64,000 nucleotides of DNA from an uncultured Acidobacteriota bacterium (GCA_963814875.1 CAWFFJ010000018.1:333611-397610), one strand, 5' to 3'; shown: positions 1,177 through 19,513, counted from the first letter of the stretch. The notes: generated by a model from the sequence alone, not told the origin. Numbers and translations: made by a program.

Positions 1177-1216
1177 TGCGGGTGTGGGCACGACACCGCC
1201 GGACGGGAGCAGCGCC

Positions 1217-2498: not shown

Positions 2499-4124
2499 TC
2501 AGGAGTCCGATGACGAATCGGCAGTCGGCGCCTGAGCGTCGAACGGCCCGGAGGCCGAAACCTCGGAGGGCACCGCGGTGACCGGCAACACGACGGTGAA
2601 GGTGGAGCCCTCCCCCACCTTACTTTCGACCCGGAGGAACCCGCCCAGCTTGCGCACGATGCCCTGAGAAACGGACAGGCCGAGACCGGTCCCTCTGCCC
2701 TTGGGCTTGGTGGTGAAGAACGGCTCGAAGACACGCGGCAAGACGTGCTCCGGGATGCCCGGCCCGTTGTCACGGACGTCGACTGAGAGGTAGCCCTCCT
2801 CGCGATCAGGATGGACCGAGATCGAGATTCTCCCGTGCTCGGGGACGACGTCGAGCGCGTTGATGATCAGGTTGACGAAGACTTGGGTGAGCATCTGACG
2901 ATCACCGTGGATCGGCGGCAGGGTTTCGGGCACCACGACCTCGAGGCGGGCGCGGGCCATCCGCACCTGGTTGGCGACCAGCTGGACGGCCTCATTGACG
3001 ATGCGGCCGACGTCGAGAGGTTCGATCCTGGTCTCGCTCTCGCGAGCGAAGTCGAGCAGGTTGCGCACGATCTTCCGGGAACGCTCGGTCTCGGACAGGA
3101 TGTCGCGGACCATCTCCAGCGTCTCGCCGGCCTCGAGGGTGGCAAAGTCCTCCTCGATCATCGCCGCGGTGAGCATGACGTTGTTGAGAGGGTTGTTGAG
3201 CTCGTGGGCAACGCCGGCGACCAGGGTTCCAATCGCCCGTAGCTTGTGCGACTCCACCAGGATCCGCTGGCGGTACTCGAGCTCGCGCACCATCCGGTTC
3301 AGGGCCAGCGCGAGCTCGGAGAACTCGTCGCGGTACCTGCGAGCCGGCATGATCGGCGTGAAGTCGCCGGCACCGATCCGGCGGGTGTAGTCGGTGAACC
3401 GCTGCAGCACCGTGATCAGCTGGTGTGCGAAGAACACGCCAATGACGACGCTGAGCACCAGCACCGCGGCGAGGAAGACGAAGGGCATCCGGCGTGCAAG
3501 CCTGAGCATCCGGTGGATGGCCTCCCGCTCCTTGGCGCGGAACTCCAGGGCCATCGACACCATCTGGGCGCCGCTGCGACGCAGCTCCGCCTCGACGCCC
3601 TTCTTGACCGCCTCGTCGCGGACCTCGCCAAGCTGCTCGAGCTCCGAGCGGTAGTCCTTCGCGTGGCGCCGCATGGTCGCGAGCCCGTTTTCACCGACGA
3701 CCTTGCGGACACGGTCTTCGCCCTCGTCGAGGAGAGTGACGGCGTTGTCGAGGTGCTGAATCGCGTCTTCGAGATTGGTCCCATAGAGCAAGAAGTTCTT
3801 CTCGTACCGACGCGCCTCCTGGACCTCACTGCCGTAGCTGTCCGCAACCTCGAGGAAGTGGATCCGGTCCTCGACATCGGAGAGTGCGTACATTGACCAC
3901 AGGGTGATGATCACGCACAGCGAGAAGATCAGTCCGAGCGCGACGGTCAGCCGGGCGCGGACGGTCACTGTGGGGCGTCGCAGCAGCGCGACGTCGAATG
4001 CGTCGGTTCGATCGTCGTCCCCCGCCGACCACCCCATCGCCTCCTCGGACGTTAGGACGCCGGCAAGCGTCGGCGGCGCCTTCTCCAGACTGTCGGCGCT
4101 CGTCCTCTGCGCCGAGTCGGTCAC
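2499..4124 (-). CDS. sensor histidine kinase (2 TM, helical sensor domain, HAMP, HisKA, HATPase_c)
   Basis: H-box [17 protein letters not shown]-like [31 protein letters not shown] boxes [25 protein letters not shown] start at 4124 lies one nt after the TGA of the upstream receiver gene. Confidence 0.9.
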
Positions 4125-4125
4125 C

Positions 4126-4533
4126 TCAGCCCCCGGATGGTCGCGGTTGGAGAGAGCTCGCAGCCTTCTCGATCACGGCCCTGAGGTCTTGCGGCTTGAA
4201 CGGTTTGGCGATGAAGTCGAAGGCGCCCTTGGCGAGCGCCTCATGAGCCAGCTCGACGGTGGCGTACCCGGTGATCAGGATGACTCTGGTCCGCTGGGAC
4301 ATCGTCTGCACCGCCTCGAGCACCTGGATGCCGTCGACGTCGTCCATCCTCACGTCGGTCACCACGATGTCGAACTCGTGTTCGCCGAGACGTGCCAGCG
4401 CAGCCCTGGCGTCCTCGAAGACCTCGATCCGATGCCCTTCTTTCTCCAGTGCGGGCTTCAACCGCTTGCCGACGATCGGCTCGTCATCGAGCACCAGGAT
4501 GTCGAGCTTGCTGCCCATGGCCTGCCTCCCCAC
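4126..4533 (-). CDS. response regulator, receiver domain only (no output domain)
   Basis: ILVLDDEP, phospho-acceptor context VVTDVRMDDVDG, ILITGYAT, KPFK. About 135 aa with no room for an effector domain. Confidence 0.9.
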   Translation of the reverse strand: MGRQAMGSKLDILVLDDEPIVGKRLKPALEKEGHRIEVFEDARAALARLGEHEFDIVVTDVRMDDVDGIQVLEAVQTMSQRTRVILITGYATVELAHEALAKGAFDFIAKPFKPQDLRAVIEKAASSLQPRPSGG

Positions 4534-4686
4534 AGTTCACCCCGACGCCGCGGAACGCTCGTCCCGCTGCGTCACCGTCCGCTGGTTCGCGCCGACCCGA
4601 CTCGAACGCGCCCCCAAACCGATGACCACACCGCCAGTCGCCTCGGAGAGCGTCCGCTGGAGCCCGCGGGTGCGGCGCGGAAGCCC

Positions 4687-5793
4687 TCACACAGGAGCCT
4701 GCTCGACTCGACCCACCGAGAGGCTCTCCCGAATCTTGCGCCTCTCGAAGAAGGCCCGGAACACGAAGTAGAGAATGATCGCCGTGCCGCCGATGCCGCT
4801 CACGTAGAGCAGCCCCTTGCTGACGGCCTGGAACAGCGTGTCATAACCGGGGTCGAAACGGATCAACCCCAACTTGCGCAGGTACACCGGGGTCGCGACC
4901 AGACGCGAGATCACGCAGAGCAGGATGATGACCGCCGTTGCGAGACGGATCACGACCTCCTTGACCACCTTCGTACCGTAGGCTCCGATGTGGATCCCGA
5001 TCAGAGAGCCGAGGAAGAGCAGCATGGTCAGGCGCAGGTCCACCATGCCCTCCAGGGCGTAGTTGAGCGCGCCGAACGCGCCCATGAACATCGCCAGGTA
5101 GAGCTCACTCCCGGCGGCGACCTGGGCCGACACGCCGAAGACATAGATCATCGCAGGCACTCCGATGAAGCCGCCGACGCCGATCGTCCCGGCGAGGTAC
5201 CCGGTGGCGAGCCCGCAGATCATGACCACCCACAGCGACACCCGGACGTCGGCGACCGGGAAGTAGATCATCGGGTGGAGTCGAAAACGGTTGAGGAAGT
5301 CGACGATCTTCCGCGACGGCCCAAACTCGCCTTCGGCACGGCGCGAGCTCACGATGTCGCGCAGCATCGAGACCGACACCACAGCCAGTATGACGACGAA
5401 CACGACGCTGATGTACAGGTCGGCCCCGGCGCCCCGCGCGGTGGAGTGACTGTCGCCCCCGTCCTGGAACATCAGCTTCATCACCCAGACGGCGAGCCGG
5501 ATCCCGATCGCCGCGGTGGCCAGCATGAAGACCGACAGCTTCTTGTCCACGTGGCCCATTTGGCCGTGCCGCCGTGACCCGACCAACGCTTTGCCGAACT
5601 TGTGGGTGATGTTGGAGCCGACCGCGATGGGTCCCAGCACACCCAGGTTCATCATCCCGGGCGTCATGAAGAAGGCGCCGCCGCTGCCGATGAACCCGCT
5701 CAGCACACCGCCGATGAAGCCAAGCATGACGACCTGAGCTGCAGTGGACCAACTCAGGTGAATGAAGAGTCCCAGGATCGCGTCCGGTTGCAT
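4687..5793 (-). CDS. TauE/SafE (DUF81) family anion permease, long form
   Basis: Polytopic membrane protein with duplicated TauE signature GFIGSGGAFFMTPGMM and GTIGVGGFIGVPAMIY. GAGGGAGGGG RBS precedes ATG 5793. Confidence 0.85.
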   Translation of the reverse strand: MQPDAILGLFIHLSWSTAAQVVMLGFIGGVLSGFIGSGGAFFMTPGMMNLGVLGPIAVGSNITHKFGKALVGSRRHGQMGHVDKKLSVFMLATAAIGIRLAVWVMKLMFQDGGDSHSTARGAGADLYISVVFVVILAVVSVSMLRDIVSSRRAEGEFGPSRKIVDFLNRFRLHPMIYFPVADVRVSLWVVMICGLATGYLAGTIGVGGFIGVPAMIYVFGVSAQVAAGSELYLAMFMGAFGALNYALEGMVDLRLTMLLFLGSLIGIHIGAYGTKVVKEVVIRLATAVIILLCVISRLVATPVYLRKLGLIRFDPGYDTLFQAVSKGLLYVSGIGGTAIILYFVFRAFFERRKIRESLSVGRVEQAPV

Positions 5794-5835
5794 GCCGTCC
5801 CCTCCCTCACCACCAGATCGTCGCCGCCGTGCAGA

Positions 5836-7341
5836 TCACTCGAATCGCGCCAGCCGCAGCAGGTTGTGCGCCGCGGTACCCCACAGATAGGCGATCAGCG
5901 GTGCGGTCAGGGTGACCACGGTCACCGCCAGCGCCCGCTCCGTCGTGCCCTCGCTGCGCAGGAAGGCGAGCAGCTCCTCCTGGTGGGTGAAGGTCACGAG
6001 GTAGAGGAGAGCCGTGAGACCGCCCGTCGCGAGCAGCTGGAGCCACTGCTTGGCGCCGAACAGGTAACGGGTCTTGAGCTCCTCCGCCCCGATCACTGGC
6101 ACACGGAGTCGCTCCCCGAGACGGCTGGCGAGGTCCCGGGTCAGGCGCTTGCGAATCGCCTCGCCCCGGCTCAGGAAGAGCTCGTCGACGACGACGAGGC
6201 TCACATTGGCGACATTGCACAGGCTGCCGATCAGGGACTGCTGACCGCCGCACACGCTGCATTGGGCGCCTGCCCTGCCGGCTTGGATCAGGCGGTGAAC
6301 GGTTTGCCGCACGCCACCGTCGTCGCTCTCCGAGGCCATCACCCCGGCATCGTCGAGGATCCCGCCGTCTCCCCCGGACAGGCTCGGTGCAGCCTCGGCC
6401 ACCACCGGGTCGACCGCTTCTGCTCCGTCCGCCTCGGGCAGCAGTCGCACCACGTCGATCGCTGCGTCCCAGCGTCCCGCCAGATCGAGCAGGCTGGCCA
6501 TGGTCGCCGACTCCGGATCGAAACGCTCCTGGACCCACAGAATGGTCGATGCGGCGACCGTGCACCGCAGCTGTCGGATCTCCGCGACCCCCGAGAGCAC
6601 CTCGCCGACCGCTTCGGCGATGGTGGACTGCCGTGGCGGGTAGGTGACCGACACGCTCCCGATCTCCGCGCGCACCTGAGCGTTGAGGTCCCGGGTCCGC
6701 GGGTCGTCGGCAAGAACCAGCCGGCACCTTGCGGCGAGCAGCAGGTTCTCGAGACGGCGCTCCCCGGCCGGCGTCGCAGTGAACTCCGGGAGCTGTGCCA
6801 TCGACACCAGTGCGGTCGCGATGTTGGCGACCGTCAGCTTCGAGCAGTTGACGGTGAGGTTGAACAGTGACGGGTCGTTGATGTCGAGGTCGTACATCGT
6901 CCGGATCCACCGCCGGATGTCATCATCGACCTGACTGACGTACTCCTTCGCCTTCTCGCGGCTGAGATGGAGGCGGTCCACCACCCCGTCGTAGCGGTCC
7001 TCAACATCGGTCAGCGCGCGGACGCGCAGGATGTGCTGGACCCCCGGCAGCACCAGGTGGCCGGCTCGCCCGTGGTACACGAGCGGGGCCTCCAGAACGC
7101 GCTCGCACAGCGTCATGGTCACGAACGCCTTGTAGCGTTCAGCCAGCAGTCCGAGCGCCTCGGTGAGGGGCCGCCGCTTGACCACCGCTTCCTCGAGCTT
7201 CCCGACCGGGATACCGTGCTGGGTTGCCGCCTCGATCACATCCTCGCGGCTGAGGCAACGGCACCCCAAGCAGTCGGCCAGGCGCTCGGCGAGCTCACGC
7301 CCCCGCCTGTAGCTCCCGCGTGACACGAAGATCGTCTGCAT
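5836..7341 (-). CDS. cytidylate-kinase-like family protein, degenerate P-loop, C-terminal membrane anchor
   Basis: N-terminus IFVSRGSYRRGRELAERLADCLG, plus HILRVRALTDVEDR and LSREKAKEYVSQVDDDIRRW, resembles the Cytidylate_kin2 family but lacks GxxGxGK[ST]. Two C-terminal hydrophobic helices (WLQLLATGGLTALLYLVTF, ALAVTVVTLTAPLIAYLWG). Start set to ATG 7341, which is preceded by GGGAGGGAGG; the ORF opens at 7377. Confidence 0.7.
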   Translation of the reverse strand: MQTIFVSRGSYRRGRELAERLADCLGCRCLSREDVIEAATQHGIPVGKLEEAVVKRRPLTEALGLLAERYKAFVTMTLCERVLEAPLVYHGRAGHLVLPGVQHILRVRALTDVEDRYDGVVDRLHLSREKAKEYVSQVDDDIRRWIRTMYDLDINDPSLFNLTVNCSKLTVANIATALVSMAQLPEFTATPAGERRLENLLLAARCRLVLADDPRTRDLNAQVRAEIGSVSVTYPPRQSTIAEAVGEVLSGVAEIRQLRCTVAASTILWVQERFDPESATMASLLDLAGRWDAAIDVVRLLPEADGAEAVDPVVAEAAPSLSGGDGGILDDAGVMASESDDGGVRQTVHRLIQAGRAGAQCSVCGGQQSLIGSLCNVANVSLVVVDELFLSRGEAIRKRLTRDLASRLGERLRVPVIGAEELKTRYLFGAKQWLQLLATGGLTALLYLVTFTHQEELLAFLRSEGTTERALAVTVVTLTAPLIAYLWGTAAHNLLRLARFE

Positions 7342-7679
7342 GCGCCTCCCTCCCAACCGTGACTGCGGGATCCGCACGCACTCCGACGGGAGTCCGCGTC
7401 AACTCCGATCCGAGCCGACGGCGCGATCCGCTCCTGTCACAGAGGCATGCGGCCATGTCAAACCCATCGTATGCAAGAAACCGATCACCGCAGGAACCGA
7501 GAAAACTGCTGTCCACGCACATCTGGAGAAGAGACCGCGAACGGTAGCGAGTGAAGCTCGTAACCTGTTGTGGCATGGTGTTACGTCTGTGTAACCCCGG
7601 AGTACCTGCCCGAAGTGACCGGGCTCGCCCGGCTCGGCGGTGGGCCTCGAGTCCTGACCCCAGGTGAGCCGCCATCGTC

Positions 7680-8054
7680 CTAGCCGTCGTCTCCTGCAAT
7701 CCTCAGCACGAGGTCGCGAAGCTGGCTGATCTTGAAGGGCTTGGGAAGAAAGTCGACCGCGCCTCCCTTCAGAGCCTCCCGAGCCGTCTCGACCGTGGCG
7801 AAGCCGGTAATGATGATCACCTTGGTGTCCATGGTCTGCTCGCGGACGAAGCGCAGCACGTCGAGACCATCCGGCTTCCGCATCTTCAGATCGGTGATGA
7901 AGATGTCGAAATGCTCGCGGGCGAAGCAGTCGATCGCTTCCTGGCTGTCGGTGAAGGTCTCGACGCTGAAGCCGACCTTCTCGAGAGCGGGTCGAAGCCG
8001 ATCGCAGACAATGGCCTCGTCGTCAAGGATGATGATTCGCTTTTTCGCCTTCAT
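7680..8054 (-). CDS. response regulator, receiver domain only
   Basis: IIILDDEA, FITDLKMRKPDG, IIITGFAT, PKPFK. CAGGAGGG RBS precedes ATG 8054. Confidence 0.9.
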   Translation of the reverse strand: MKAKKRIIILDDEAIVCDRLRPALEKVGFSVETFTDSQEAIDCFAREHFDIFITDLKMRKPDGLDVLRFVREQTMDTKVIIITGFATVETAREALKGGAVDFLPKPFKISQLRDLVLRIAGDDG

Positions 8055-8139
8055 CGCCGCCCTCCTGCCGCGCCGATCCGCTCGTCCCCGGACGGCCGGT
8101 CCGACTTCGGAAGCAAGACCACCTCACCCGAGTCCCCGG

Positions 8140-8538
8140 TTACGAGGATGCCCGCCGAGCCAGCCGCTCCGCCTTCTTGGCCGCTTTCTTCACCATCGAC
8201 CCGACCGCTTCGAGGCGGAAGGGCTTGGAGACGAAGCCGTAGACCCCACTGTACTCGGCCTCTCGCTCCGACTCGATGGTGGCATAACCGGTCACGATGA
8301 TCACCTGGGTTGCCGGGCTCGTCCTGCGGACGTGGTGCAGCACGTCGAGGCCGTCCGGGGCCTTCATCTTGAGATCGGTGACGACTACGTCGAACGACTT
8401 CTCGGTCAGCCGGGCGACCGCTTTTTCGCTCTCGGTGTACGTCTCGACATCCAGCCCCTGCTTCTTTAAGTGGTCGCGCAGTCGATTGCAGACAATCTCC
8501 TCGTCATCGATGACCATCACCTGACCGTTTCGGTCCAT
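8140..8538 (-). CDS. response regulator, receiver domain only
   Basis: VMVIDDEE, VVTDLKMKAPDG, IIVTGYAT, SKPFR. Start set to ATG 8538 (GGGGAGGG RBS); the ORF opens at 8616 but would then overlap the upstream gene. Confidence 0.85.
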   Translation of the reverse strand: MDRNGQVMVIDDEEIVCNRLRDHLKKQGLDVETYTESEKAVARLTEKSFDVVVTDLKMKAPDGLDVLHHVRRTSPATQVIIVTGYATIESEREAEYSGVYGFVSKPFRLEAVGSMVKKAAKKAERLARRASS

Positions 8539-8567
8539 GACACCCTCCCCGAGCCGCTGCTCACGGA

Positions 8568-11129
8568 TCAACATGAGAACAAGTCGTAGTGACCGGACAT
8601 GAAGTTGTCGAAGCACCTGTCGACGACCGCGTCGTCGTTGAGCATGATGTCCAGCTGGCGCGTGAAACCTATCAATCGCCCTACCATTTCCATCCGCTTG
8701 TGGATCGCCTCGGCAGAGATCTTCTTGATCCGACCGATCACGAGATCGCCGCTTCCCTCGACCACGAAGTCATTCGTCTCCAGGATGCGTTGCAGCAGGA
8801 CGGCTCGTCGCGACCGCCGCGTGAGCTCGGTGACGCCGCCGGTGAAACGGAAGTAGATGTAGTTGTCGTTGCGGTTGGTGCCCAGGTAGCAGTCAACGAT
8901 GTTGAAGTGGAAGCCGAGCCGCAGGCTGAGGTTGAGGTACTCGCGGGAAGCGATCGCCAGGTTGATCTGTGGACGGCTCGCGGCGGGCCCCAGCCACGGT
9001 GCAGAGCGGGTGGCGCTGGCCATGAACGCGTTGGCGTCCATCTGCGCCGGAGCGGTCACCCAGACTCCCTTCGCGGTCAGACCGTCGAGCAGCGACCGCA
9101 GGGGCGCGGACACGACGCTCTCCGGCTGGATCGTCTTGTGCTCGTCGCTCGAACTCACCGCTCCCCCGATGTCGATCAGCACCAGGTCGAGCGGAACCGT
9201 GAGGGCCAGCCGCCGCACGTAGCGGTTGCGCACCGAGGGATCGACCCAGGTTCCCTCGGACAGCTCTCGGACCGCCATCTCGTGAGCGAATCGGATGATG
9301 TCGTGGTACGTGGAGCAACTCGCGGCCGTGAAGTCGCGGGATTGCGGGTCCCGGAGGTTGAGAGGGGCGACCTTCTTGAACATCCTCCGCAGGAGCCTGA
9401 ACTCTTGCGACTCCTCGAAGGTCGAGCTGCGCAGGAGCTGGTGATCCAGCAGCGCCTTGACCTTTCCTCGGTAGACGACGTTGGCCTCGGCATCGACCGT
9501 GACCTCATCGCCGTCCTGCAGAACCTGGGTGGCGATGCCGGTGTCGACGATCGCCGGCACCCGGAACTCGCGAGCAATGGCGGCGAGGTGTCCGGTCGAG
9601 GTGCCGACGTCGGTCACCACGGCGGACGCATGGGCCAGAACCGCGGCCAACCTCGGCGACGAGGTCCTCGCGACGAGCACCGGATCCGCCGGAAGGTCCT
9701 TCATCGAGTCGTCGTCGATGACCACCCTGACCCGACCGTACCCGATGCCGTTGCACGCGACAGTGCCGCGACCGCTGAGCAGCACCGGAAAGCGGCCGAC
9801 GATCTCGGTGACGTCGCTGGCGCTGGGCACCGCGTGCCGCTCGATTCGCAGCGGCCTGGCCTGCAGGATGACCAGCTCCCCTCGCTCGTCGATGGCCCAC
9901 TCGACGTCCACCGCACACTTCATGCTCTTCTCGATCTGCAGCGACACGGCGGCCAGCGTGGCGAGCTGGGCATCCGAAACCGCGGGCTGCGACCTCGCCT
10001 GCTCGCCGATCTCGGCCAACTCGACACCGCGGCCGCTGCCCTGGACCAGCATCATCAACTTGGTCGCGACGTGGCGCGAAACCACCTCGTGGGGGGCCTG
10101 TCTCGCAATCTCGAACCGGTCCACCGGCTGGCTTCCCTCGACCACCGTCTTGCCCAGGCCGCGCGCGGCCGAGACTGTCATCAGGTTGGCCTCGGGACGC
10201 GTCGGGATCAGGCTGTGCAGCACACCGCCCGCCCGCGCCGGCACCATGCACAGGCAGCCCACCGCCATCAGGCCACGGGCCGGGTGGAGGTTGTGGCTCT
10301 GCCGGTACCTCATCACCCCGGTGGAGTAGAGGCTTGCGAGGACCTCCTTGTAGGCCTCCACCACGCCGTCTGCCGGCACCCCGAGCACGGTCGTGAACTG
10401 GCCCGCGAAGCTGAGCTCACTGTCCTCGCCGAGCGCGCTGCTGCGCACTGCGAAGCTGCTGCAGCCTGAGCGCTTTTCGAGGCGTGCCGCCTCCCGAGCG
10501 ATCGCGCGTTGCAGATCACGCGGCAGCTTGAGGCCCAGGACCCGAGTCCTGAGCTCCGCAGAGGCGGCCTCGAACATCGCCTCGTCGAACAGCTCCGGCT
10601 GGGCGAAGGTGCGCTCGACGTAGCGGTCGATGCGCGCCTCCATGAGCAGGTGCTGGCAGGCATAGGTCGTGATGACGAAGCCGGCGGGGACACGACACCC
10701 GAGCCGCTTCTCGATCGCAGCCAGCCGGGCCATCTTCGCTCCGGCGACGTCGGTGAGATCTTCGTCGATGTCGGCGAGCGGAATCACGTAATCCGTCGTG
10801 CCGACGATGACCTTGGACTCGTAGATGTTGTGGACGTCCTCAGCGATCCTGCGCAGGGTATCGACGAGCTCAGGGTAGCGGTTGCCGGTCACCCCGTTGA
10901 GGTCGTAGACCACGCCGCGGACAGCGTTCTCCAGATCGCGTGCGAGCGTCTTCAGGTACTGGCTGTCGAACACATACTCGCCACCCAGCATCTCACCGGC
11001 CCCAGCGATCAACTCCAGGACCTGGTTGTTCTTGTCGACCAAGTCGCGAAAGTGCTCCAGCCGTTCTCGAAGGACGGCGAACGCGTCCTTGCCTTCCCTG
11101 AGTCGCCGCAGCCACTTCCAGAAATTCAC
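8568..11129 (-). CDS. PEP/pyruvate-binding (PPDK_N-type ATP-grasp) plus swivel phospho-histidine domain protein with a non-canonical C-terminal domain
   Basis: The N-terminal region after about 110 aa looks like the PpsA/PPDK nucleotide-binding domain (VRSSALGEDSELSFAGQF). The mobile His domain reads VVTDVGTSTGHLAAIAREFRVPAIVDTG. The last ~290 aa (STFEESQEFRLLRRMFKK ... FMSGHYDLF) do not resemble the PEP-utilizers_C TIM barrel. GTG start. Confidence 0.85.
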   Translation of the reverse strand: MNFWKWLRRLREGKDAFAVLRERLEHFRDLVDKNNQVLELIAGAGEMLGGEYVFDSQYLKTLARDLENAVRGVVYDLNGVTGNRYPELVDTLRRIAEDVHNIYESKVIVGTTDYVIPLADIDEDLTDVAGAKMARLAAIEKRLGCRVPAGFVITTYACQHLLMEARIDRYVERTFAQPELFDEAMFEAASAELRTRVLGLKLPRDLQRAIAREAARLEKRSGCSSFAVRSSALGEDSELSFAGQFTTVLGVPADGVVEAYKEVLASLYSTGVMRYRQSHNLHPARGLMAVGCLCMVPARAGGVLHSLIPTRPEANLMTVSAARGLGKTVVEGSQPVDRFEIARQAPHEVVSRHVATKLMMLVQGSGRGVELAEIGEQARSQPAVSDAQLATLAAVSLQIEKSMKCAVDVEWAIDERGELVILQARPLRIERHAVPSASDVTEIVGRFPVLLSGRGTVACNGIGYGRVRVVIDDDSMKDLPADPVLVARTSSPRLAAVLAHASAVVTDVGTSTGHLAAIAREFRVPAIVDTGIATQVLQDGDEVTVDAEANVVYRGKVKALLDHQLLRSSTFEESQEFRLLRRMFKKVAPLNLRDPQSRDFTAASCSTYHDIIRFAHEMAVRELSEGTWVDPSVRNRYVRRLALTVPLDLVLIDIGGAVSSSDEHKTIQPESVVSAPLRSLLDGLTAKGVWVTAPAQMDANAFMASATRSAPWLGPAASRPQINLAIASREYLNLSLRLGFHFNIVDCYLGTNRNDNYIYFRFTGGVTELTRRSRRAVLLQRILETNDFVVEGSGDLVIGRIKKISAEAIHKRMEMVGRLIGFTRQLDIMLNDDAVVDRCFDNFMSGHYDLFSC

Positions 11130-11162: not shown

Positions 11163-11768
11163 TCAGTGGGCCTTCTTCGATCCCAAACCGAAGACAACGC
11201 CGGTCAGGAGTCCGACCACGATCGCCACCATGACGGCCAGGATGCCGAACAACAGGCCGTGTTGCCGTGACAGGTCGGAGATGAAGGCGGCCAGGCCGAC
11301 CGTCCGGACCGTGAACGCTCCGGTCGCGAGTCGTGTTCCGCTGTCGCCGTCAAACCCCACCAGTGACACCTCGTAGGGGCCGAAGGGTGCCTTCGCCGGC
11401 AGCCAGAACTCGGTCGACACACGTTCAAGACCGCCATCGAGCGGCTCGACGTGGATGCCGGTCGCCGAAACTCCGAACAGACCCTCCCGCTGCTTGAGCT
11501 TGATGAGCTCACCCAGGAGCCTGCGAGTCGCCTCGTCCCCGGGATCCGGAGCCACCCTGGACTCGACCGCGCCAAAACCCACTCCCAGGTCCGCGAGCAC
11601 GGTCGGCGAGGCGAGGCTCTCGAGCGGACGGGTCGAGACGACGCAATAGAATCCCGGTACTTTCTCCAGACTTGCTTCACCGACGTTCATCCACAGGAAG
11701 CCCCAGACCCTGCCCTTCTGCTTCAGGTCGGACCCCACTCTCCCGACCCGCACAGACGACGACGACAT
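11163..11768 (-). CDS. Alph_Pro_TM / TIGR02186-like membrane protein, C-terminal two-thirds
   Basis: KQKGRVWGFLWMNVGEASLEKVPGFYCVVSTRPL and a C-terminal TM helix LLFGILAVMVAIVVGLLTGVVFGL match my recollection of that family. The ATG at 11768 lies inside a GTC-repeat shared with the upstream fragment. Confidence 0.7.
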   Translation of the reverse strand: MSSSSVRVGRVGSDLKQKGRVWGFLWMNVGEASLEKVPGFYCVVSTRPLESLASPTVLADLGVGFGAVESRVAPDPGDEATRRLLGELIKLKQREGLFGVSATGIHVEPLDGGLERVSTEFWLPAKAPFGPYEVSLVGFDGDSGTRLATGAFTVRTVGLAAFISDLSRQHGLLFGILAVMVAIVVGLLTGVVFGLGSKKAH

Positions 11769-11961: not shown

Positions 11962-12888
11962 CTAGTGACCCCCCGCGTACGCTACCAGGATGTCCGGTGT
12001 GAGGACCAGGCCGAGGAGCATCTTGCCCATCACGACGAGCACGATGATCGCCATCATGATCTTGAGCTGATCGGCATTGAACCGCCGGCTCGCGCGAGCG
12101 CCGATCTGGGCGCCGATCACGGAGCCGATCAGGAGGATCAGGGCAAGAACGAAGTCCACCGTGTGGTTCACCGCGGCTTGAAGCACGGTCACGTTCATGC
12201 ACGTGAAGAGGATCTGGAAGAGGCTGGTACCGACGACCACATGCATCGGCATCCGCAGCAGATAGACCATGACCGGTACCATGATAAAGCCACCGCCGAC
12301 CCCCATGATCGCGGCCAACGTGCCGACCATCGTCCCCAGCGCGAGCGGCATCAGCACCGAGAGGTTCACGTTCGAGCGCGGAAAGCTCATCTTCCAGGGA
12401 AGGCTGCGCACCAGCCGCGCATAGAGCGAGGGGCCGGCACCGACGTCGTCCGTGTCGCGCCGGGTTCCCCTGAGCCCACCGAGGCTCTCGACGAACATGT
12501 AGCTCCCGATCCCGCCGAGCATCACCACGTAGGTCACACTGATCAGGAAGTCGGCCTGGCCGAGGGCGCGCAGCAGCTTGATCAGCCACACCCCGACCGA
12601 CCCGCCGAGGAGGCCTCCGAGCAGCAGCAGCACCCCCATCTTGAAGTCGACGGAACCGGCCTTGGCGTGGGCGTACGACCCGGAGGCCGAAGCGGCCACG
12701 ATCTGGTTCGAGTCGGAGGCCGCGGCCACGGTTGGTGGGATCCCGATCATCATCAGCAGCGGAGTCATCAGAAACCCGCCTCCGACCCCGAACAGACCCG
12801 AGAGGAAGCCGACCAGGCACCCCAACGAGAGCAGGAGGAAGATGTTGACCGAGTTGCCCGCCACCGGAAGGAAGATAGAAAACTCCAT
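11962..12888 (-). CDS. TauE/SafE (DUF81) family anion permease
   Basis: MEFSIFLPVAGNSVNIFLLL.., signatures GLFGVGGGFLMTPLLM and AIMGVGGGFIMVPVMVY. Start set to ATG 12888, 10 nt after the upstream kinase stop; the ORF opens at 13152 inside that kinase. Confidence 0.85.
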   Translation of the reverse strand: MEFSIFLPVAGNSVNIFLLLSLGCLVGFLSGLFGVGGGFLMTPLLMMIGIPPTVAAASDSNQIVAASASGSYAHAKAGSVDFKMGVLLLLGGLLGGSVGVWLIKLLRALGQADFLISVTYVVMLGGIGSYMFVESLGGLRGTRRDTDDVGAGPSLYARLVRSLPWKMSFPRSNVNLSVLMPLALGTMVGTLAAIMGVGGGFIMVPVMVYLLRMPMHVVVGTSLFQILFTCMNVTVLQAAVNHTVDFVLALILLIGSVIGAQIGARASRRFNADQLKIMMAIIVLVVMGKMLLGLVLTPDILVAYAGGH

Positions 12889-12898
12889 ACCGTCTCCT

Positions 12899-14437
12899 TC
12901 AGCCCGCGGTCCCATGTCGCTTGGCGCTGCCGGGTAGAAAGACCGAGAACGTGGTTCCCTCGCCGACCTCGCTCGCGACCGTGATCCGTCCGCCGTGCCG
13001 CTCGACGATCCCGAAACTGACCGCAAGGCCGAGGCCGGTGCCGTGGCCCGGTTCCTTGGTCGTAAAGAAGGGATCGAAGACCTTGTCGAGATCCTCCGGA
13101 GGGATGCCGATGCCGGTGTCGGCGACATCGACGCGCACGCCGCCCTCCTCATCCCGAACCGCCCGGACCGTGAGCGTCCCGCCCTCCGGCATTGCCTGGA
13201 CGGCGTTCAGCAGGAGGTTGAGGAACACCTGCTGGAGGTGCCTCGGGTTGGCCGGCACCGGCGGCAGATCGTCGTCGATCTCACGCTCGAGCTCGACCTG
13301 ACCGATCGCGAGCTCGTTGCCGAGCAGGTTGAGCGTGGTCTCCAGCACCTCTCCCACGGCGACCGACGTCATCACCGGATGGTCGTTGCGCGTGAAGTCG
13401 AGCAGGCTGCGAACGGTCGCGCTGGCGCGTTCCACCTGCGCGTAGATCTCGTTGAGCATCGTCAGCTTGGTCTCGTCGGAGTAGTCCTCGAAGCTCTCGA
13501 TCAACGACTCGGTGGTGAGCCCGATGTTGTTGAGCGGGTTGTTCAGCTCGTGGGCCACTCCCGACGTCAAGGTCCCGACCGCCGCCATCTTGCCGGCCTG
13601 CAGCAGCTGCTCCTGGCGGCTCTTCAGCTCCTGGAGCATCTGGTTGACCGCGACCGCCAGCTCCGAGAACTCGTCGCGGAACCTGCGCGCCGGCCGCACC
13701 GGCGAGTAATCGCCGGCACCGATTCTGGAGGCGTAGGCCACGAACCGACCCAGGGGCGCCACCACCGCGTGGGACATGAGTGCGGCCAGGAATCCCATCA
13801 CCACGACCATGATCAGAAGGAACGCAACCGCCACCACCATGGAGGTGCGCAACATCGCGTGCATCGAGAGGCGCTGGCGATCGACCATGTCCTCCGCCTC
13901 GGAGAGGATGCGTGAACCCGCCGTTCGCAACTGGGTCTCGATCGATCGGTACTCGGCGCTGTGCCGGTCGCCGTCCGGCCCCATCGAGGCGTCGAGCGTG
14001 TACAGCAGGTCCTGGTAGGCAGCCAGGTCCGCTTCGATGGCACTGAACCGTTCGTCACCCATCACCGACCTGAGCTCGTCGGCACTTTTCTCGAACTCGC
14101 TCTGCGCGGTGTGGATGTTGGCCAGGGCGTCCGTCAGGTTGGTCCCATAGAGGAAGAAGTTCTTCTCGAACCGGCGCGCCTGCTCGATCTCGAACAGGGA
14201 GTTCCCGGCTTTCTCGAGGAACTGCAGGTTCTTGGCGACGCCGGAGACGAAGACGACCGCCGCCACCGTAATCGCGGCCATGAACACGAACAGGAGGACG
14301 AAACCCGCCACAATCCGCGACCGAATGCTGATCCGAGGCCGCTCGAGGATCGCCCGCGTCGTCTCGACATCCTCATCCGAGAGGCGAAGCGCCTTCGCCT
14401 GGGCGACATCGTCGGACCGCATCCCGTTCTCGGTCAT
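12899..14437 (-). CDS. sensor histidine kinase (paralog of 2499..4124): 2 TM, helical sensor, HAMP, HisKA, HATPase_c
   Basis: [57 protein letters not shown]. Shares the sensor motif EQARRFEKNFFLYGTNLTDA with the other kinase ([19 protein letters not shown]). Start ATG 14437 chosen; the ORF opens at 14617. Confidence 0.85.
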   Translation of the reverse strand: MTENGMRSDDVAQAKALRLSDEDVETTRAILERPRISIRSRIVAGFVLLFVFMAAITVAAVVFVSGVAKNLQFLEKAGNSLFEIEQARRFEKNFFLYGTNLTDALANIHTAQSEFEKSADELRSVMGDERFSAIEADLAAYQDLLYTLDASMGPDGDRHSAEYRSIETQLRTAGSRILSEAEDMVDRQRLSMHAMLRTSMVVAVAFLLIMVVVMGFLAALMSHAVVAPLGRFVAYASRIGAGDYSPVRPARRFRDEFSELAVAVNQMLQELKSRQEQLLQAGKMAAVGTLTSGVAHELNNPLNNIGLTTESLIESFEDYSDETKLTMLNEIYAQVERASATVRSLLDFTRNDHPVMTSVAVGEVLETTLNLLGNELAIGQVELEREIDDDLPPVPANPRHLQQVFLNLLLNAVQAMPEGGTLTVRAVRDEEGGVRVDVADTGIGIPPEDLDKVFDPFFTTKEPGHGTGLGLAVSFGIVERHGGRITVASEVGEGTTFSVFLPGSAKRHGTAG

Positions 14438-14880
14438 CGCCGTCCGTCCCGTCGAAGCACTCCGTTCCGAGCCCGCATTCCCCAGCACATCACGTCGCGA
14501 GGGCGTTGAGATGGAAGTTCTGTGCCAGCGTGAGAATGCCGCCGCAAGTCCTTTCCGCCGTCGGACAGCCCCGTGGCAACGCAGTCGCAGTCCTCGTACG
14601 TAACGGTGCGGTAACACCCAGGGCTACACTGCAGTCCTCTTCGTGACGCACGCATCTCCGGCTCTCGTCCTGGTCCTGCTGCCGAGGCCCGCCCTCTGCG
14701 GCTGAGCAGCCGGCCGGACCTGGATCCAGGCCAACCGCGCGCAGCCCGACTTCGAGGCACGGGCGTCTCGAATCTGAGGCGGCGTCGGACCCACAGGGAT
14801 GAACCGATTCTCAGCCCACGCGCTGGCCATCGAATTGGGGACCTGCACAAGTGAACCGGGAGCAAACCCAGCTCACAAGC

Positions 14881-15366: not shown

Positions 15367-16191
15367 TCACCGGAAGCTGTCGATCGCTTCCCGAATGAAA
15401 TCATCGAGCACGTTGACCTCGACCCCATCAGCCCCCTCGACCGAGCTCAAGAGCTGCTCGATCGACGCCGCCACGGACTGCTGCTCTCGCCTCACCGAGG
15501 TGATCTCGACGGTGATCCTGCCATGCAAGGCCTGGACCCTCGCCTCCGGGTAGCGCTCGATGAGGGCGACCCGGGCCCGAGCCTCCAGCGCAACATCCTG
15601 GAGTCGGGCGCGTGAGTAGGTCATCGCCTGGAAGCTGCGCTCGCCGGCCGTGTCCGCAATCATGCCGACGGCCCGCTCGGGCTCGATCTGTTGGAGCCGG
15701 ATGACCAAGTCGTACAGCGACGGATCGGTTTCGTCCCTCCCGAATGCCGCCAGCGACCAGCGCCTGCGGCCCGCGATCTGTCGCAATCTCACCCGTTCAG
15801 CCTTCTCGACCGAAACCCCTCGCCGCTGGGCGAGCTGTCGAGCCATCGCCGCGCTGTCGGCAAGTACGCGCACTTTGAGCACGTGAGAGACCCCTGCAAC
15901 GTACAGGTGCGCCGCGAGACCGTGACAGACGACGTCATCCGCGAGCAGCTTGTCAACGACGACAGTTTGAATCGACGCCAGGCGCCGGGCTCTCGATCCG
16001 GCGGTCATCCCGAGCAGGGAAGGGTCATCGTCGAGCGACCGCAGCAGTCGAGCTCCGTCGATGCCGAAACGCTCCGCCACCGCGCCGAGGAGCTCCCGCC
16101 CGACGAGACGGAATCCAAGCCGACCGGCGACTCCCTCGGCGATCTCACGACCCGTGGTGAGGGAATCCGACGACAGGATCACGACGGGCAT
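15367..16191 (-). CDS. cytidylate-kinase-like family protein, degenerate P-loop, soluble short form
   Basis: VVILSSDSLTTGREIAEGVAGRLGF, HVLKVRVLADSAAMARQLAQRRGVSVEKAERVRLRQIAGRRRW, DPSLYDLVI. Parallels 5836..7341 but has no TM segment. Start ATG 16191; the upstream 133 codons of the ORF are low-complexity. Confidence 0.7.
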   Translation of the reverse strand: MPVVILSSDSLTTGREIAEGVAGRLGFRLVGRELLGAVAERFGIDGARLLRSLDDDPSLLGMTAGSRARRLASIQTVVVDKLLADDVVCHGLAAHLYVAGVSHVLKVRVLADSAAMARQLAQRRGVSVEKAERVRLRQIAGRRRWSLAAFGRDETDPSLYDLVIRLQQIEPERAVGMIADTAGERSFQAMTYSRARLQDVALEARARVALIERYPEARVQALHGRITVEITSVRREQQSVAASIEQLLSSVEGADGVEVNVLDDFIREAIDSFR

Positions 16192-16762
16192 CGGCGGGTC
16201 CTTTCTCCGCGCGGCCGCGCGCCCCCAAGGCCGAGCGGCCTCATGAAGCACGGTCTCAAGTGAGGCGGAATACTCTAGCCCAGAACCAGATTCTACTCCA
16301 GATTCTGAGATCGACGACCTCACCATAGCGACGTCGGCCGATTGCAGATTCGGCCCCGGATCGCCACCGAGCGCCATGCACGGGGTGAAGGCATCCCCCT
16401 TCGCGGAATGGAGATACGACCAGGCCGCGTTGACCCCGGCAGCGTCCGCCGCAGCGGCGCAGGGAGCACAAGGTGCCCGACGACGTCCGCACAAAAGCCC
16501 CAAAGGCATCCGACCACCGTCCCCGACGGGCATCGGCCGGCGGGAGTGTGGCATGCCGGTCGACCACGGCTCCGTCATGTACCATCCCAAGGCGGCGGTG
16601 TCATAATCTGACCGAGGGACCGGCCTCCGTCCGGAGAAGCTCGCTGAGCGCGTCGTTTCCGCCCCGACAGGCGGCGACGTTCAGGCAGCGGGCCGAGGCG
16701 GCTGTCGACCCGGCGTCCCCCGATTCGCGGGCGGCGCAATCAACCTGGAGGAGCGCGACGTC

Positions 16763-19513
16763 GTGGCGACCAATCCTCGGCAACCCAAGTCTGCGACTCT
16801 CGCCGTAGTCGGCAGCGCCGACTTCGTCGACGAGCTCTACGCCCGCTGGCGTGATGACCCGGAGTCAGTCTCCGAGGACTGGCGTCTGTTCTTCACCGGC
16901 TTCGACCTCGCGATCTGTCCCCGGGACTGCGTGGCCCCGGAGCGTGCGCGGTCCCAGTCACAGGTTGCAAGCCTGATATACGCCTACCGCGCCATTGGCC
17001 ACCTGATTGCGCAGGTCGATCCGCTCGGGAACAACCTCGACAGCCATCCCGAGCTCGAGCTCGAGGCCTTTGGCCTCACCGACCGTGAGCTCGACCAGGC
17101 CTTCGACACCGGGCACCTCGGCGGGCCGCCTCGGGCGACGCTGCGCGAGATCCTCGCCGTCCTCAAAGACACCTACTGCCGCTCGGTCGGCGTCGAGTAC
17201 ATCCACATCCAGGATCGCGAGGTCCGTCGGTGGCTCCAGAGCCAGATGGAGCCGGTGCGCAATCGACCGTCGCTCGACAAGGCCGCCAAGCTCGAAATTC
17301 TCACCCAGCTGACCGATGCCGAGATTTTCGAGACCTTCATCCAGAGCCGATACCCGGGGCAGAAGCGGTTCTCGCTCGAAGGAGCCGAAAGCCTGATTCC
17401 GGCGCTGCGGGCGTTCATCGAGGCGGCCGGCGAGTTCGGAGCGGATGAGATCGTGGTCGGCATGGCCCACCGCGGCCGTCTCAACGTCCTCGCCAACATC
17501 CTCCACAAGCCCTACCAGCTCATCTTCCACGAGTTCGAGGACAACCTGCAGCCCGACGCCGTCGGCGGCGACGGCGATGTCAAGTACCACCGCGGGTACG
17601 GCTCGCACCTCACGACCGCGACCGGCAAGGTCCTCAACGTCACCCTGACCGCAAACCCCAGCCATCTCGAGGCGGTCGACCCGGTGGTCGAAGGCCGTGC
17701 TCGAGCCAAGCAGCGGCGCCGCAACGACACCGAGGCGCGCGCCAAGGTCATCCCCCTGTTGATCCACGGCGACGCCGCCTTCGCTGGCCAGGGGCTCGTT
17801 GCCGAGACCCTCAACCTCTCGCAGCTCGCCGGTTACCGTACCGGAGGCACCGTCCACATCGTCGTCAACAACCAGATCGGCTTCACCACGATGCCGGGCG
17901 AGGCGCGCTCGTCGCGCTACCCGACGGACGTGGCGAAGCTGGTCGAGGCGCCCATCTTCCACGTCAACGGCGACGACCCGGAGGCCGTGGTCTACGTCGT
18001 CGGGCTCGCGCTGGCCTTTCGCCAAAAGTTCCACCGCGACGTCGTCATCGACATGTTGTGCTACCGGCGCCACGGCCACAACGAAGGCGACGAGCCGGCG
18101 TTCACCCAACCGGTGATGTATCAGAAGATCCGCAACCGCCCCTCGGTGCGCAAGCTGTATCAGCTCGATCTCGAAGGCTCCCGGACGATCACCCTCGGCG
18201 AGAGCAGCCGCATCGCGGACGAGTTCCAGAGCCGCCTCCTGGACGCCTTCAACGGCGCCAAGGGCAGCTGTCCCCTCGACCTGCTCCACGAGCACGCCTA
18301 CACCGGGCTGTGGAAGGGCCTCAACACCCCCTACTCCCACGATCCGGTCTCGACGGGCATGGCCAAGAAGGCACTGGTGGCCGTTTCGCGGGCTCTGACA
18401 ACGGTTCCCGCGGGCTTCCACCTCAACCCGAAGATCCAGCGCCGGCTCCCGGGGCAGCTCAAGGCGGCCGAAAAGGGCGGCGACATCGACTGGCCAAACG
18501 CCGAGCTGCTCGCGATCGGCTCGCTGCTCACGGAGGGGATCCCGGTGCGCCTCAGTGGCCAGGACAGCACCCGCGGCACCTTCTCGCAGCGTCACGCGGT
18601 CTGGTACGACACCAAGTCGCAGGAAGCCTATATCCCGTTGAACCACGTTGCCTCCGGTCAGGAACGGTTCTGCGTCTACAACAGCATGCTGTCCGAAGCC
18701 GCGGTGCTCGGTTTCGACTATGGCTACTCTCTGGTCGACCCGGACATCCTGGTTCTCTGGGAGGCCCAGTTCGGCGACTTCGCCAACGGCGCCCAGGTGA
18801 TCATCGATCAGTTCATCGCCGCGTCGTTGGACAAGTGGGAGCGGTCGAGCGGGCTGGTGATGCTGCTGCCCCACGGTTACGAGGGCCAGGGCCCCGATCA
18901 TTCCAGCGCCTACCTCGAACGCTACCTGACCTTGTGCGCCGAGGACAACATCCAGGTCTGCAACTTCACCACGCCGGCCCAGTACTTCCACGCCCTCCGG
19001 CGCCAGGTCAAACGCCCCTTCCGGCGACCGCTGGTGATCATGTCGCCGAAGAGCCTGCTCCGTCACAAACGCTGCGTGTCGCCGTTCGGCGACCTGGTGA
19101 AGGGCAGGTTTCACGAGGTCCTGGACGACCCCGCACGGCCGACGGCGAAGCCGAAACGACTCCTGATGTGCTCGGGCAAGATCTTCTACGACCTGCTCGA
19201 GCGGCGTGAGGCCGACGGGATCAACGACGCGGCCATCGTCAGGGTCGAGCAGCTCTACCCGTTCCACGAGGAGCTGCTCCGCCGCGTGACCGAGCCCTAC
19301 CGTGAGGCGGCCGAGGTCCTGTGGGTTCAGGAGGAGACCCGTAACCGGGGCGCCTGGAGCTACATCTCGCCGCGCTTAGCCGAGATCTTCCCGGACCGGC
19401 GGGTCCGCTACCTCGGCCGCGCGGAGAGCGCGAGCCCGGCGACGGGCTCGGCGCGGATCCACCGCGAGCAGCAGGCGGCGATCGTGGCCGAAGCGCTGGG
19501 CGTGTCGGACTGA
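16763..19513 (+). CDS. sucA: 2-oxoglutarate dehydrogenase E1 component
   Basis: 916 aa. Characteristic [76 protein letters not shown] start 10 nt after GGAGGA. Confidence 0.95.

Follow-up and report, generated by a model that had tools for sequence, protein, structure and literature searches.

We have identified, in a 64,000-nucleotide stretch of DNA from an uncultured Acidobacteriota bacterium (GCA_963814875.1 CAWFFJ010000018.1:333611-397610, the whole of which is here called the window), a gene for an 853-residue dikinase-like protein that carries the nucleotide-binding and phosphohistidine modules of phosphoenolpyruvate (PEP) synthase, PpsA, but in which the catalytic TIM barrel is replaced by a domain of about 290 residues that no library recognises, so that it cannot be counted as an ordinary PpsA or PPDK. 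The parts follow one another in the order three-helix N-terminal module, ATP-grasp domain, central swivel domain with its histidine, and new C-terminal domain. The intact ATP-grasp and swivel-His modules support assignment to the PpsA/PPDK type of enzyme and, as judged from sequence, these first two catalytic modules would place the protein in the dikinase superfamily, while it appears to be neither a PpsA/PPDK, a rifampin phosphotransferase (RPH), a histidine kinase nor a VadK-type truncation. The gene belongs to a conserved operon comprising a histidine kinase, a TauE permease, an Alph_Pro_TM protein, the dikinase-like gene and one or two receivers, and we tentatively favour the view that it encodes a regulatory kinase of a signalling and oxyanion-transport operon, with a protein phospho-group as its probable product and the receivers as its input.

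Domain architecture of the dikinase-like protein

The N-terminal two thirds of the protein contain well-preserved dikinase modules. Pfam places PPDK_N (PF01326) at residues 128-432 with an E-value of 7.8e-67 and the PEP-utilizers mobile (swivel) domain (PF00391) at residues 481-548 with an E-value of 9.5e-17. The PpsA-type motifs GAK, VRSSALGED..SFAGQ, DVEWA and LQARP are kept in the ATP-grasp domain, and in alignment with PpsA 9dae the corresponding GGK-type, VRSSA..ED..SFAGQ, DIEWA and LQxRP motifs are near-invariant among 88 homologues. The swivel motif TDxG..T-x-H-AAI-xRE..xP is likewise retained in the PpsA alignment, and its catalytic His514, encoded at 9588-9590 within TDVGTSTGHLAAIAREFRVPAIV, aligns with the His of the PpsA TSH motif (T-x-H) and is invariant across the 88 full-length homologues. 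The original prediction, which was made from the DNA alone, had described a nucleotide-binding domain of this type and a swivel domain with its catalytic His intact, and these matches bear it out; the peptides that it quoted (GTSTGHLAAIAREFRVPAIV, which holds His514, STFEESQEFRLL, GFHFNIVDCYLGTNRNDNYIYFRFTGG and FMSGHYDLF) are all present in the open reading frame (ORF), which lies on the minus strand (the prediction named no strand) and has a third-position GC content (GC3) of 0.87. The N-terminal helical segment of about 110 residues that it also proposed appears in the full-length AlphaFold2 model (pLDDT 89.2, pTM 0.81, from an 88-sequence alignment) as three long helices at residues 2-48, 56-81 and 87-103. 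This module is the least conserved part of the protein, with three of its 111 columns conserved at 90% or more, and it has no conserved His. A Pfam scan of residues 1-112 and 565-853 gave no matches even at E<=1.

The C-terminal domain departs from the PEP/pyruvate barrel by every comparison made. PF02896 matched neither the window protein nor any of 54 homologues at E<=1, and an hhalign comparison with a genuine PPDK TIM barrel (from locus L015) returned a probability of 0.3%. When residues 565-853 were modelled alone with AlphaFold2 (pLDDT 78, 54-sequence alignment) the result agreed with the full-length model, the predicted domain comprising a helical part that includes a helix at 608-625, then a beta-rich part arranged as beta4-alpha-beta2-alpha, and a helix at the end, with about ten strands in the domain, mostly antiparallel. 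As modelled, this is not a (beta/alpha)8 or TIM barrel. A profile of the domain searched against all PDB sequences matched nothing except through the swivel columns, and Foldseek against the PDB found nothing below an E-value of 0.03, with TM scores of at most 0.34 under either normalisation; the RIF-binding domain of RPH was not matched by the domain in Foldseek. Two further claims of the original prediction, that PF02896 features are missing from this region and that the barrel has given way to an unrecognised domain of about 290 residues, thus withstood searches of Pfam, NCBIfam, the PDB and Foldseek, none of which gave a significant match, and the domain merits a family definition of its own. 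Kinship was also considered with the HisKA-HATPase core of 67 neighbouring kinases and with the unexplained C-terminal half of a neighbouring Cytidylate_kin2-like protein, and hhalign rejected both (probabilities of 0.1% and 0.2%) as it did the PPDK barrel.

The C-terminal domain is conserved as strongly as the ATP-grasp domain, with 26 of 245 columns conserved at 90% or more as compared with 34 of 329. Among the 88 full-length members H609, D610, H616, H741, G765, R775 and D827 are invariant, and C605, R613, E617, D653, Y731, N733, N756, R772, R774, D795 and Q825 are nearly so. The conserved polar set (three His, four Asp, three Arg, one Cys and two Asn) would be typical of a catalytic site, and the pattern of conservation is that expected for a second catalytic or ligand site and not for a linker or a decayed remnant. 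At residue 740 (codon 8910-8912), beside the invariant H741, the window protein has a Phe where 93% of the family has a Tyr ('GYHF'), and this Tyr therefore cannot be a family-wide essential phospho-acceptor. We also note a 318-residue ORF (P0087, at 8001-8957 of locus L088) that consists of the C-terminal domain and the last strand of the swivel domain and is flanked by an ABC transporter gene and a DUF202 gene. It has no dikinase gene upstream or nearby and retains that swivel strand at its start, and we set it aside as a probable gene remnant, although a free-standing form of the domain is conceivable.

PpsA (EC 2.7.9.2; 9dae, 8a8e and 2ols) has the same order of the first two catalytic modules, ATP-grasp and then a central swivel with T-x-H, but its PDB sequences align only to residues 114-562 of the window protein (about 450 residues, E-values of 1e-44 to 1e-47). 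Foldseek matches the full-length model to PpsA with an E-value of 5e-23, and the matches to PpsA, RPH, HpeI and PPDK are solely through the ATP-grasp and swivel parts. An ordinary PEP synthase or PPDK with a divergent PEP/pyruvate domain would explain why PpsA gives the best sequence matches in NCBIfam and the PDB and why members carry the public annotation 'pyruvate, water dikinase'. We nonetheless consider this explanation effectively refuted: the matches end at about residue 564, NF005057 and TIGR01418, the NCBIfam PpsA models, give 290 and 278 bits where their respective cut-offs are 598 and 740, with the alignment covering model positions 4-472 only, and the absence of PF02896 from all 54 members, the negative comparison with the PPDK barrel, the predicted alpha+beta fold and the signalling and transport context all count against it. 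Relative to PpsA, the window protein has an unrelated alpha+beta domain in place of the PEP/pyruvate TIM barrel (PF02896) and an additional three-helix module at its N-terminus, and its gene is part of an operon of two-component and permease genes, outside any gluconeogenic context.

RPH (5hv1, 5fbs) is likewise a dikinase-superfamily enzyme in which the pyruvate domain has been swapped for another acceptor module, and its ATP-grasp domain superimposes on that of the window protein with a root-mean-square deviation of 2.5 Å over 321 columns. The original prediction had taken as established that RPH runs from ATP-grasp domain to swivel His to substrate module, which is wrong, because the RPH order is ATP-grasp domain, RIF-binding domain and then a C-terminal swivel (767-865) that carries His825 (PMC4844700). 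The window protein keeps the PpsA order, its central swivel aligning to RPH residues 784-860 of 867, its C-terminal domain is unlike the RIF-binding domain, and its score against the RPH model NF041857 is 184 bits where the cut-off is 999.

Among PPDK relatives, the window protein scores 68 bits against NF004531 (PRK05878, 'pyruvate, phosphate dikinase', 534 positions; cut-off 456), which we take to be a model of the Rv1127c-type short PPDK. Rv1127c of M. tuberculosis, or VadK, is a PPDK-derived protein of about 50 kDa that, like the window protein, has no PEP/pyruvate barrel; it autophosphorylates its swivel His422 with ATP and Mg2+ and is a regulator and not a metabolic enzyme (PMC13400623). 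VadK differs in having the ATP-binding and swivel domains only (about 490 residues), with neither a replacement C-terminal domain nor an N-terminal helical module, and in lying outside a two-component and permease context. It does provide a precedent for a further possibility, that the window protein charges only its own His514 and acts as an autophosphorylating switch or scaffold, its C-terminal domain being an interaction or regulatory domain with no phosphotransfer site, and the beta-rich half gives weak Foldseek hints (E-values of 0.03-0.5) to T3SS-chaperone/YbjN-like folds (2plg, 4h5b and 3kxy), which are protein-binding. However, with TM scores no higher than those given above these fold matches are insignificant, and the invariant His, Asp and Arg residues and near-invariant Cys are unexpected in a pure docking domain, so that we think such a role very unlikely.

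Other systems share parts of this design. Phenylphosphate synthase and HpeHI (9goj), two-subunit dikinases for small molecules, have a PpsA-like ATP-grasp domain and swivel His as here and use a hydroxyl acceptor other than pyruvate, and HpeI is among the best Foldseek matches of the full-length model, but their modules lie on separate subunits encoded in aromatic-catabolic clusters and they have no counterpart of the C-terminal domain. PTS Enzyme I has a swivel His domain homologous to that of the window protein (E of about 1e-7), and as it phosphorylates a protein, HPr, the module can serve protein phosphotransfer; Enzyme I, though, is charged by PEP on a TIM barrel and lacks an ATP-grasp domain, and its docking site for HPr is a helical subdomain that the window protein does not have. 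Pfam found no two-component histidine-kinase core (HisKA/DHp and HATPase_c) in the window protein.

Gene neighbourhood, fusions and family

The neighbourhood was counted in the 80 best related loci, the nearest relatives, a set in which the TauE-type context may be over-represented. A same-strand receiver gene lies within 450 bp downstream of the dikinase-like gene in 71 of 78 loci, TauE and Alph_Pro_TM genes are upstream in 61 of 69, and a histidine kinase is within 7 kb upstream in 53 of 66; some histidine kinase is detectable in 42 of the 46 loci that are fully flanked. Every one of 103 downstream receivers has the full phospho-acceptor pocket (DD, Asp55, Thr/Ser83 and Lys105), and the two adjacent receivers invoked by the original prediction are real and canonical. 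Members of the Cytidylate_kin2-like family accompany the module in 37-39 of the 80 loci.

Of the 80 loci, 21 have one or two paralogues behind the receiver, and all of those with an identifiable taxon are from Desulfobacterota. One such paralogue (p2 of locus L080, in a Desulfovibrio metagenome-assembled genome) has a degenerate ATP-grasp domain and no PPDK_N match, and retains the swivel His and all of the C-terminal-domain motifs; this protein may be a pseudo-enzyme, or a partner that is phosphorylated in trans. Tandem paralogues are seen at L080 11307-13871 and 13874-16723, and also in L028, L046, L048, L055, L059, L061, L063, L065, L066 and L077.

Fusions and variant neighbourhoods return to the same themes of oxyanion permeases, two-component signalling and phosphoprotein-type phosphatases. 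P0124 (987 residues) is a whole dikinase-like protein with a receiver at the C-terminal end of the new domain, in a locus with the order TauE, Alph_Pro_TM, fusion, receiver and Cytidylate_kin2 with BON, and a dikinase::receiver fusion also occurs in two metagenomic fragments. P0230 (NSW87159.1, 1252 residues, Syntrophobacteraceae), which matches the window protein with an E-value of 2.7e-120 over residues 19-846, has a dual-specificity phosphatase (DSP) fused at its C-terminus and is preceded by genes for Phosphonate-bd, a PAS histidine kinase and a receiver, with a YeeE-type Sulf_transp, TusA and an Se/S carrier also upstream. P0269 carries an LMW-PTP phosphatase at the N-terminus of the dikinase and is adjoined by MFS and chromate transporters; other members have a separate LMW-PTP gene directly upstream. 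A PP2C phosphatase lies two genes downstream of one relative, behind a CBS-domain gene, and another variant has a receiver, DVU0150 and TauE upstream of the dikinase-like gene. A subgroup of about 1035-1078 residues (P0202, P0219, P0224, P0243, P0257 and P0262) carries an extra C-terminal extension of about 200 residues with no clear family, P0202 giving only a sub-threshold match to Glyco_hydro_59_C (lectin-like); at L085, a locus of this extended type, an LMW-PTP gene precedes the dikinase-like gene.

The constancy of the receivers bears on an alternative in which the protein would be a non-canonical phosphodonor, an ATP-grasp-based 'histidine kinase' on whose C-terminal domain the receivers dock and which passes phosphate from His514 to Asp55 of the adjacent receivers, either directly or through a His of that domain (e.g. 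H616 in the 'FxHE' helix). This would account for the immediately downstream position of the receiver gene, the universal retention of the acceptor Asp pocket, the presence of two receivers with one kinase in the window module and the four fully flanked loci with no detectable histidine kinase; the receiver fused at the C-terminal end of the new domain recalls hybrid kinases, and PTS Enzyme I is a textbook case of a swivel His that phosphorylates a protein. On the other hand, a canonical histidine kinase, the obvious donor, is present in the remaining 42 of those 46 loci, hhalign finds no kinship with the HisKA/HATPase core, CheA P2 and Hpt folds are not among the listed Foldseek hits, and hydrolysis of ATP to AMP and Pi is energetically unnecessary for transfer from His to Asp. 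Sister subfamilies moreover pair the enzyme with DSP, LMW-PTP or PP2C phosphatases, which act on phosphomonoesters and not on acyl-phosphates. We regard direct phosphorylation of the receivers as unlikely, and a receiver as more likely to be an input than an acceptor, because of the histidine kinase in 42 of 46 loci and the Cys-type or PP2C phosphatases found with relatives. The original prediction that the C-terminal domain holds the phosphoryl acceptor, possibly a receiver, is plausible from the sequence, and is consistent with the conserved polar residues and the receiver fusions.

A search of 1.84 billion cluster representatives (50%-identity clusters) found more than 150 clusters with the same full-length architecture of about 850-870 residues at E<1e-113, the best full-length homologues having E=0, so that the observation is far beyond chance. 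When species-representative genomes were scanned, at least 591 loci of the family came to light, in Thermodesulfobacteriota, Myxococcota, Gemmatimonadota, Acidobacteriota, Planctomycetota and Nitrospirota, among others. Public annotation calls the members 'pyruvate, water dikinase' or 'PEP-utilizing enzyme'; the family is thus large and consistently mis-annotated, and these labels distort metabolic reconstructions. The loci nearest to the window are in Myxococcota, Gemmatimonadota and Thermodesulfobacteriota metagenome-assembled genomes, with an identity of just 63-64%.

A proposed regulatory role and its alternatives

The regulatory role that we tentatively favour would begin as in PEP synthase, with the ATP-grasp domain loading a phosphoryl group from ATP onto His514 with release of AMP and Pi, a chemistry that the conservation of both catalytic modules supports. 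The swivel domain would bring this group to the C-terminal domain, where the His/Asp/Arg set and the near-invariant Cys could form a second active site that passes it to an acceptor other than pyruvate. The membrane sensor kinase would phosphorylate the single-domain receivers, which in their phosphorylated form would modulate the dikinase, whose product would most probably be a regulatory protein phospho-group that DSP, LMW-PTP or PP2C could remove in the sister subfamilies. More speculatively, the phospho-group might switch the co-encoded oxyanion permease, and any naming of the acceptor is likewise speculative. We favour regulation because the genes around it code for signalling proteins rather than metabolic enzymes, because kinase-phosphatase fusions suit switches and not metabolites, because pseudo-enzyme paralogues occur, and because kinase and phosphatase mutants of D. 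vulgaris, described below, show opposite phenotypes; VadK is a precedent for a regulatory PPDK relative that autophosphorylates on His (PMC13400623).

The genetic evidence comes from Korte et al. 2014, the only directly relevant report in a literature search by locus tags, family names and domain combinations, which found no biochemical follow-up; a 'nitrate cluster' hit in PMC4092371 proved spurious. The Desulfovibrio 'nitrate cluster' DVU0249-DVU0245 has the order PtxB-like, histidine kinase, receiver, dikinase and DSP, together with TauE (DVU0251) and a small protein (DVU0250), and the domains annotated for DVU0246/Dde_0604 are PPDK_N, a PEP-utilizing mobile domain and ATP-grasp only (PMC4001038). 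D. vulgaris becomes resistant to nitrate at 100 mM when a transposon is inserted in DVU0246, the receiver, DVU0250 or TauE, whereas the phosphatase mutant is more sensitive to nitrate, and the authors suggested leaky anion (thiosulfate) transport or uptake (PMC4001038). As annotated in that paper (its Table 3), the domains of the dikinase-like protein and the genes that accompany it, which encode TauE, a small hypothetical membrane protein, a histidine kinase and a receiver of one domain, correspond to those of the window operon, and the P0230 locus reproduces the cluster order of Phosphonate-bd (PtxB-like), histidine kinase, receiver and dikinase, with the DSP fused on. The window locus differs from the nitrate cluster in lacking PtxB-like and phosphatase genes and in having two receivers as well as Cytidylate_kin2-like genes. 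A genetic phenotype exists for at best one probable family member, DVU0246.

The permeases and phosphatases can also be viewed differently, as companions of a small-molecule dikinase whose C-terminal domain would bind a low-molecular-weight acceptor and convert ATP to AMP and Pi, as in RPH, phenylphosphate synthase and HpeHI, the acceptor being for example the solute of the TauE, YeeE or ChrA-type permeases or some other compound with a hydroxyl or oxyanion group, and the two-component system controlling only expression or activity. The constant neighbours are anion permeases of three different families, the polar residues of the C-terminal domain are invariant across phyla, and the DSP and LMW-PTP superfamilies include non-protein phosphatases and arsenate reductases, all of which agree with such a role. 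The biochemically characterised members with a non-TIM acceptor module, moreover, all use small molecules (RPH, PMC4844700; HpeI, 9goj). However, no catabolic or biosynthetic genes co-occur, the neighbours being signalling proteins and permeases, and, were the substrate a metabolite, a kinase fused to a phosphatase would run a futile cycle. The PP2C near one relative is a protein phosphatase, and the tandem paralogues with a degenerate ATP-grasp domain and intact swivel His and C-terminal domain look like signalling partners. A small-molecule acceptor therefore seems to us rather improbable.

Several considerations nevertheless weigh against the regulatory kinase that we favour. To our knowledge, the characterised dikinases in which the acceptor module has been replaced (RPH, phenylphosphate synthase and HpeHI) all act on small molecules, and a small ligand common to all members would also agree with polar residues so strictly kept between very distant phyla. 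The window lacks phosphatase genes, as do nearly all of its 80 closest loci, and the kinase/phosphatase argument is thus borrowed from sister subfamilies. The phosphatase mutant in G20 has positive fitness, opposite in sign to that in D. vulgaris (PMC4001038). DVU0246 is a probable member of the family on annotation, length and synteny, and biochemical evidence for any family member was not found in the literature.

A broader version of the idea, that these proteins form a previously unrecognised class of bacterial signalling kinases in which an ATP-grasp/swivel-His engine acts through the C-terminal domain on two-component signalling or TauE gating, is possible but somewhat doubtful. Phosphate would then pass either to the receivers (from ATP to His514, possibly to His616, and on to Asp55) or to a side chain of a permease-gating protein, and the DSP, LMW-PTP or PP2C phosphatases would be its erasers in the sister subfamilies. 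A new class of this kind would be of considerably greater importance. If the regulatory kinase proposed here is correct, a module of central metabolism and antibiotic inactivation has been reused, in hundreds of genomes, as a regulatory kinase wired into two-component systems; this would open to biochemistry the unexplained nitrate cluster of Desulfovibrio, and so the nitrate resistance of sulfate reducers, which bears on the control of oil-field souring, and it would also bear on the regulation of TauE/TSUP permeases, whose substrates are largely unknown.

The window operon and its flanks

The dikinase-like gene is one of eleven consecutive genes on the minus strand, and the gaps flanking it are about 30 bp. 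The acceptor pocket of the first receiver, REC1, is complete (DD, D55, T83 and K105). PADLOC matched no defence-system models in the dikinase-like gene and its neighbours. The positions of the genes and of the protein domains are collected in the table.

Table. Positions in the window of the dikinase-like gene, the parts of its product and the neighbouring genes
Feature	Coordinates	Strand	Remarks
Dikinase-like gene, whole	8568..11129	-	GTG start, 853 aa, stop codon included
N-terminal module, residues 1-111	10797..11129	-	three long helices
ATP-grasp nucleotide-binding domain, residues 112-440	9810..10796	-	PF01326
Phosphohistidine swivel domain, residues 471-556	9462..9719	-	PF00391; His514
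New C-terminal domain, residues 565-853	8571..9437	-	alpha+beta fold predicted; no Pfam, NCBIfam or PDB match
Sensor histidine kinase, operon head	12899..14617	-	HAMP-HisKA-HATPase_c
TauE/SafE (TSUP) anion permease	11962..12888	-	likely start ATG 12888, right after the kinase stop
Alph_Pro_TM / TIGR02186-family protein	11163..11768	-	C-terminal transmembrane helix; 33 bp 5' of the dikinase start
REC1 single-domain receiver	8140..8538	-	likely ATG start at 8538, 29 bp past the dikinase stop
REC2 single-domain receiver	7680..8054	-	
Cytidylate_kin2-like membrane-anchored protein, 513 aa	5836..7377	-	downstream of REC2
Second TauE	4687..5793	-	
REC3	4126..4533	-	
Second histidine kinase	2499..4124	-	
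Further Cytidylate_kin2-like gene, 407-aa ORF	15367..16590	-	PF13189 at residues 140-298; upstream of the first kinase

The Alph_Pro_TM ORF (201 residues) matches its Pfam model only from position 52 and is separated from TauE by a gap of about 190 bp. Homologues are about 265 residues long (as in L081), and an unusual start codon or a frameshift may hide a true start that lies upstream; a start so relocated may carry a signal or transmembrane segment with it.

The genes at 2499-7377 on the minus strand make up a second, parallel module of the 513-residue Cytidylate_kin2-like protein, TauE, a single-domain receiver and a HAMP histidine kinase. The Cytidylate_kin2-like protein has a P-loop that looks degenerate ('SRGSYRRGRE'), about 330 residues that belong to no family, and C-terminal transmembrane helices. 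The same quartet of genes is found together in L013, L034, L047, L053 and L033, and its recurrence in other genomes suggests a general design of two-component system, TauE and kinase-like protein. Short Cytidylate_kin2 genes, some with BON, flank the dikinase module in 39 of 87 comparison loci and in the window itself, often on the opposite strand and after the receivers (e.g. L081 6607-7419).

Beyond these modules, a multi-haem c-type cytochrome (1184-2464, plus strand; NapC/NirT-like, with matches to several CxxCH families) lies on one flank and the E1 component of 2-oxoglutarate dehydrogenase (16763-19513, plus strand) on the other, which fits a high-GC (about 67%) organism that respires metals or respires anaerobically.

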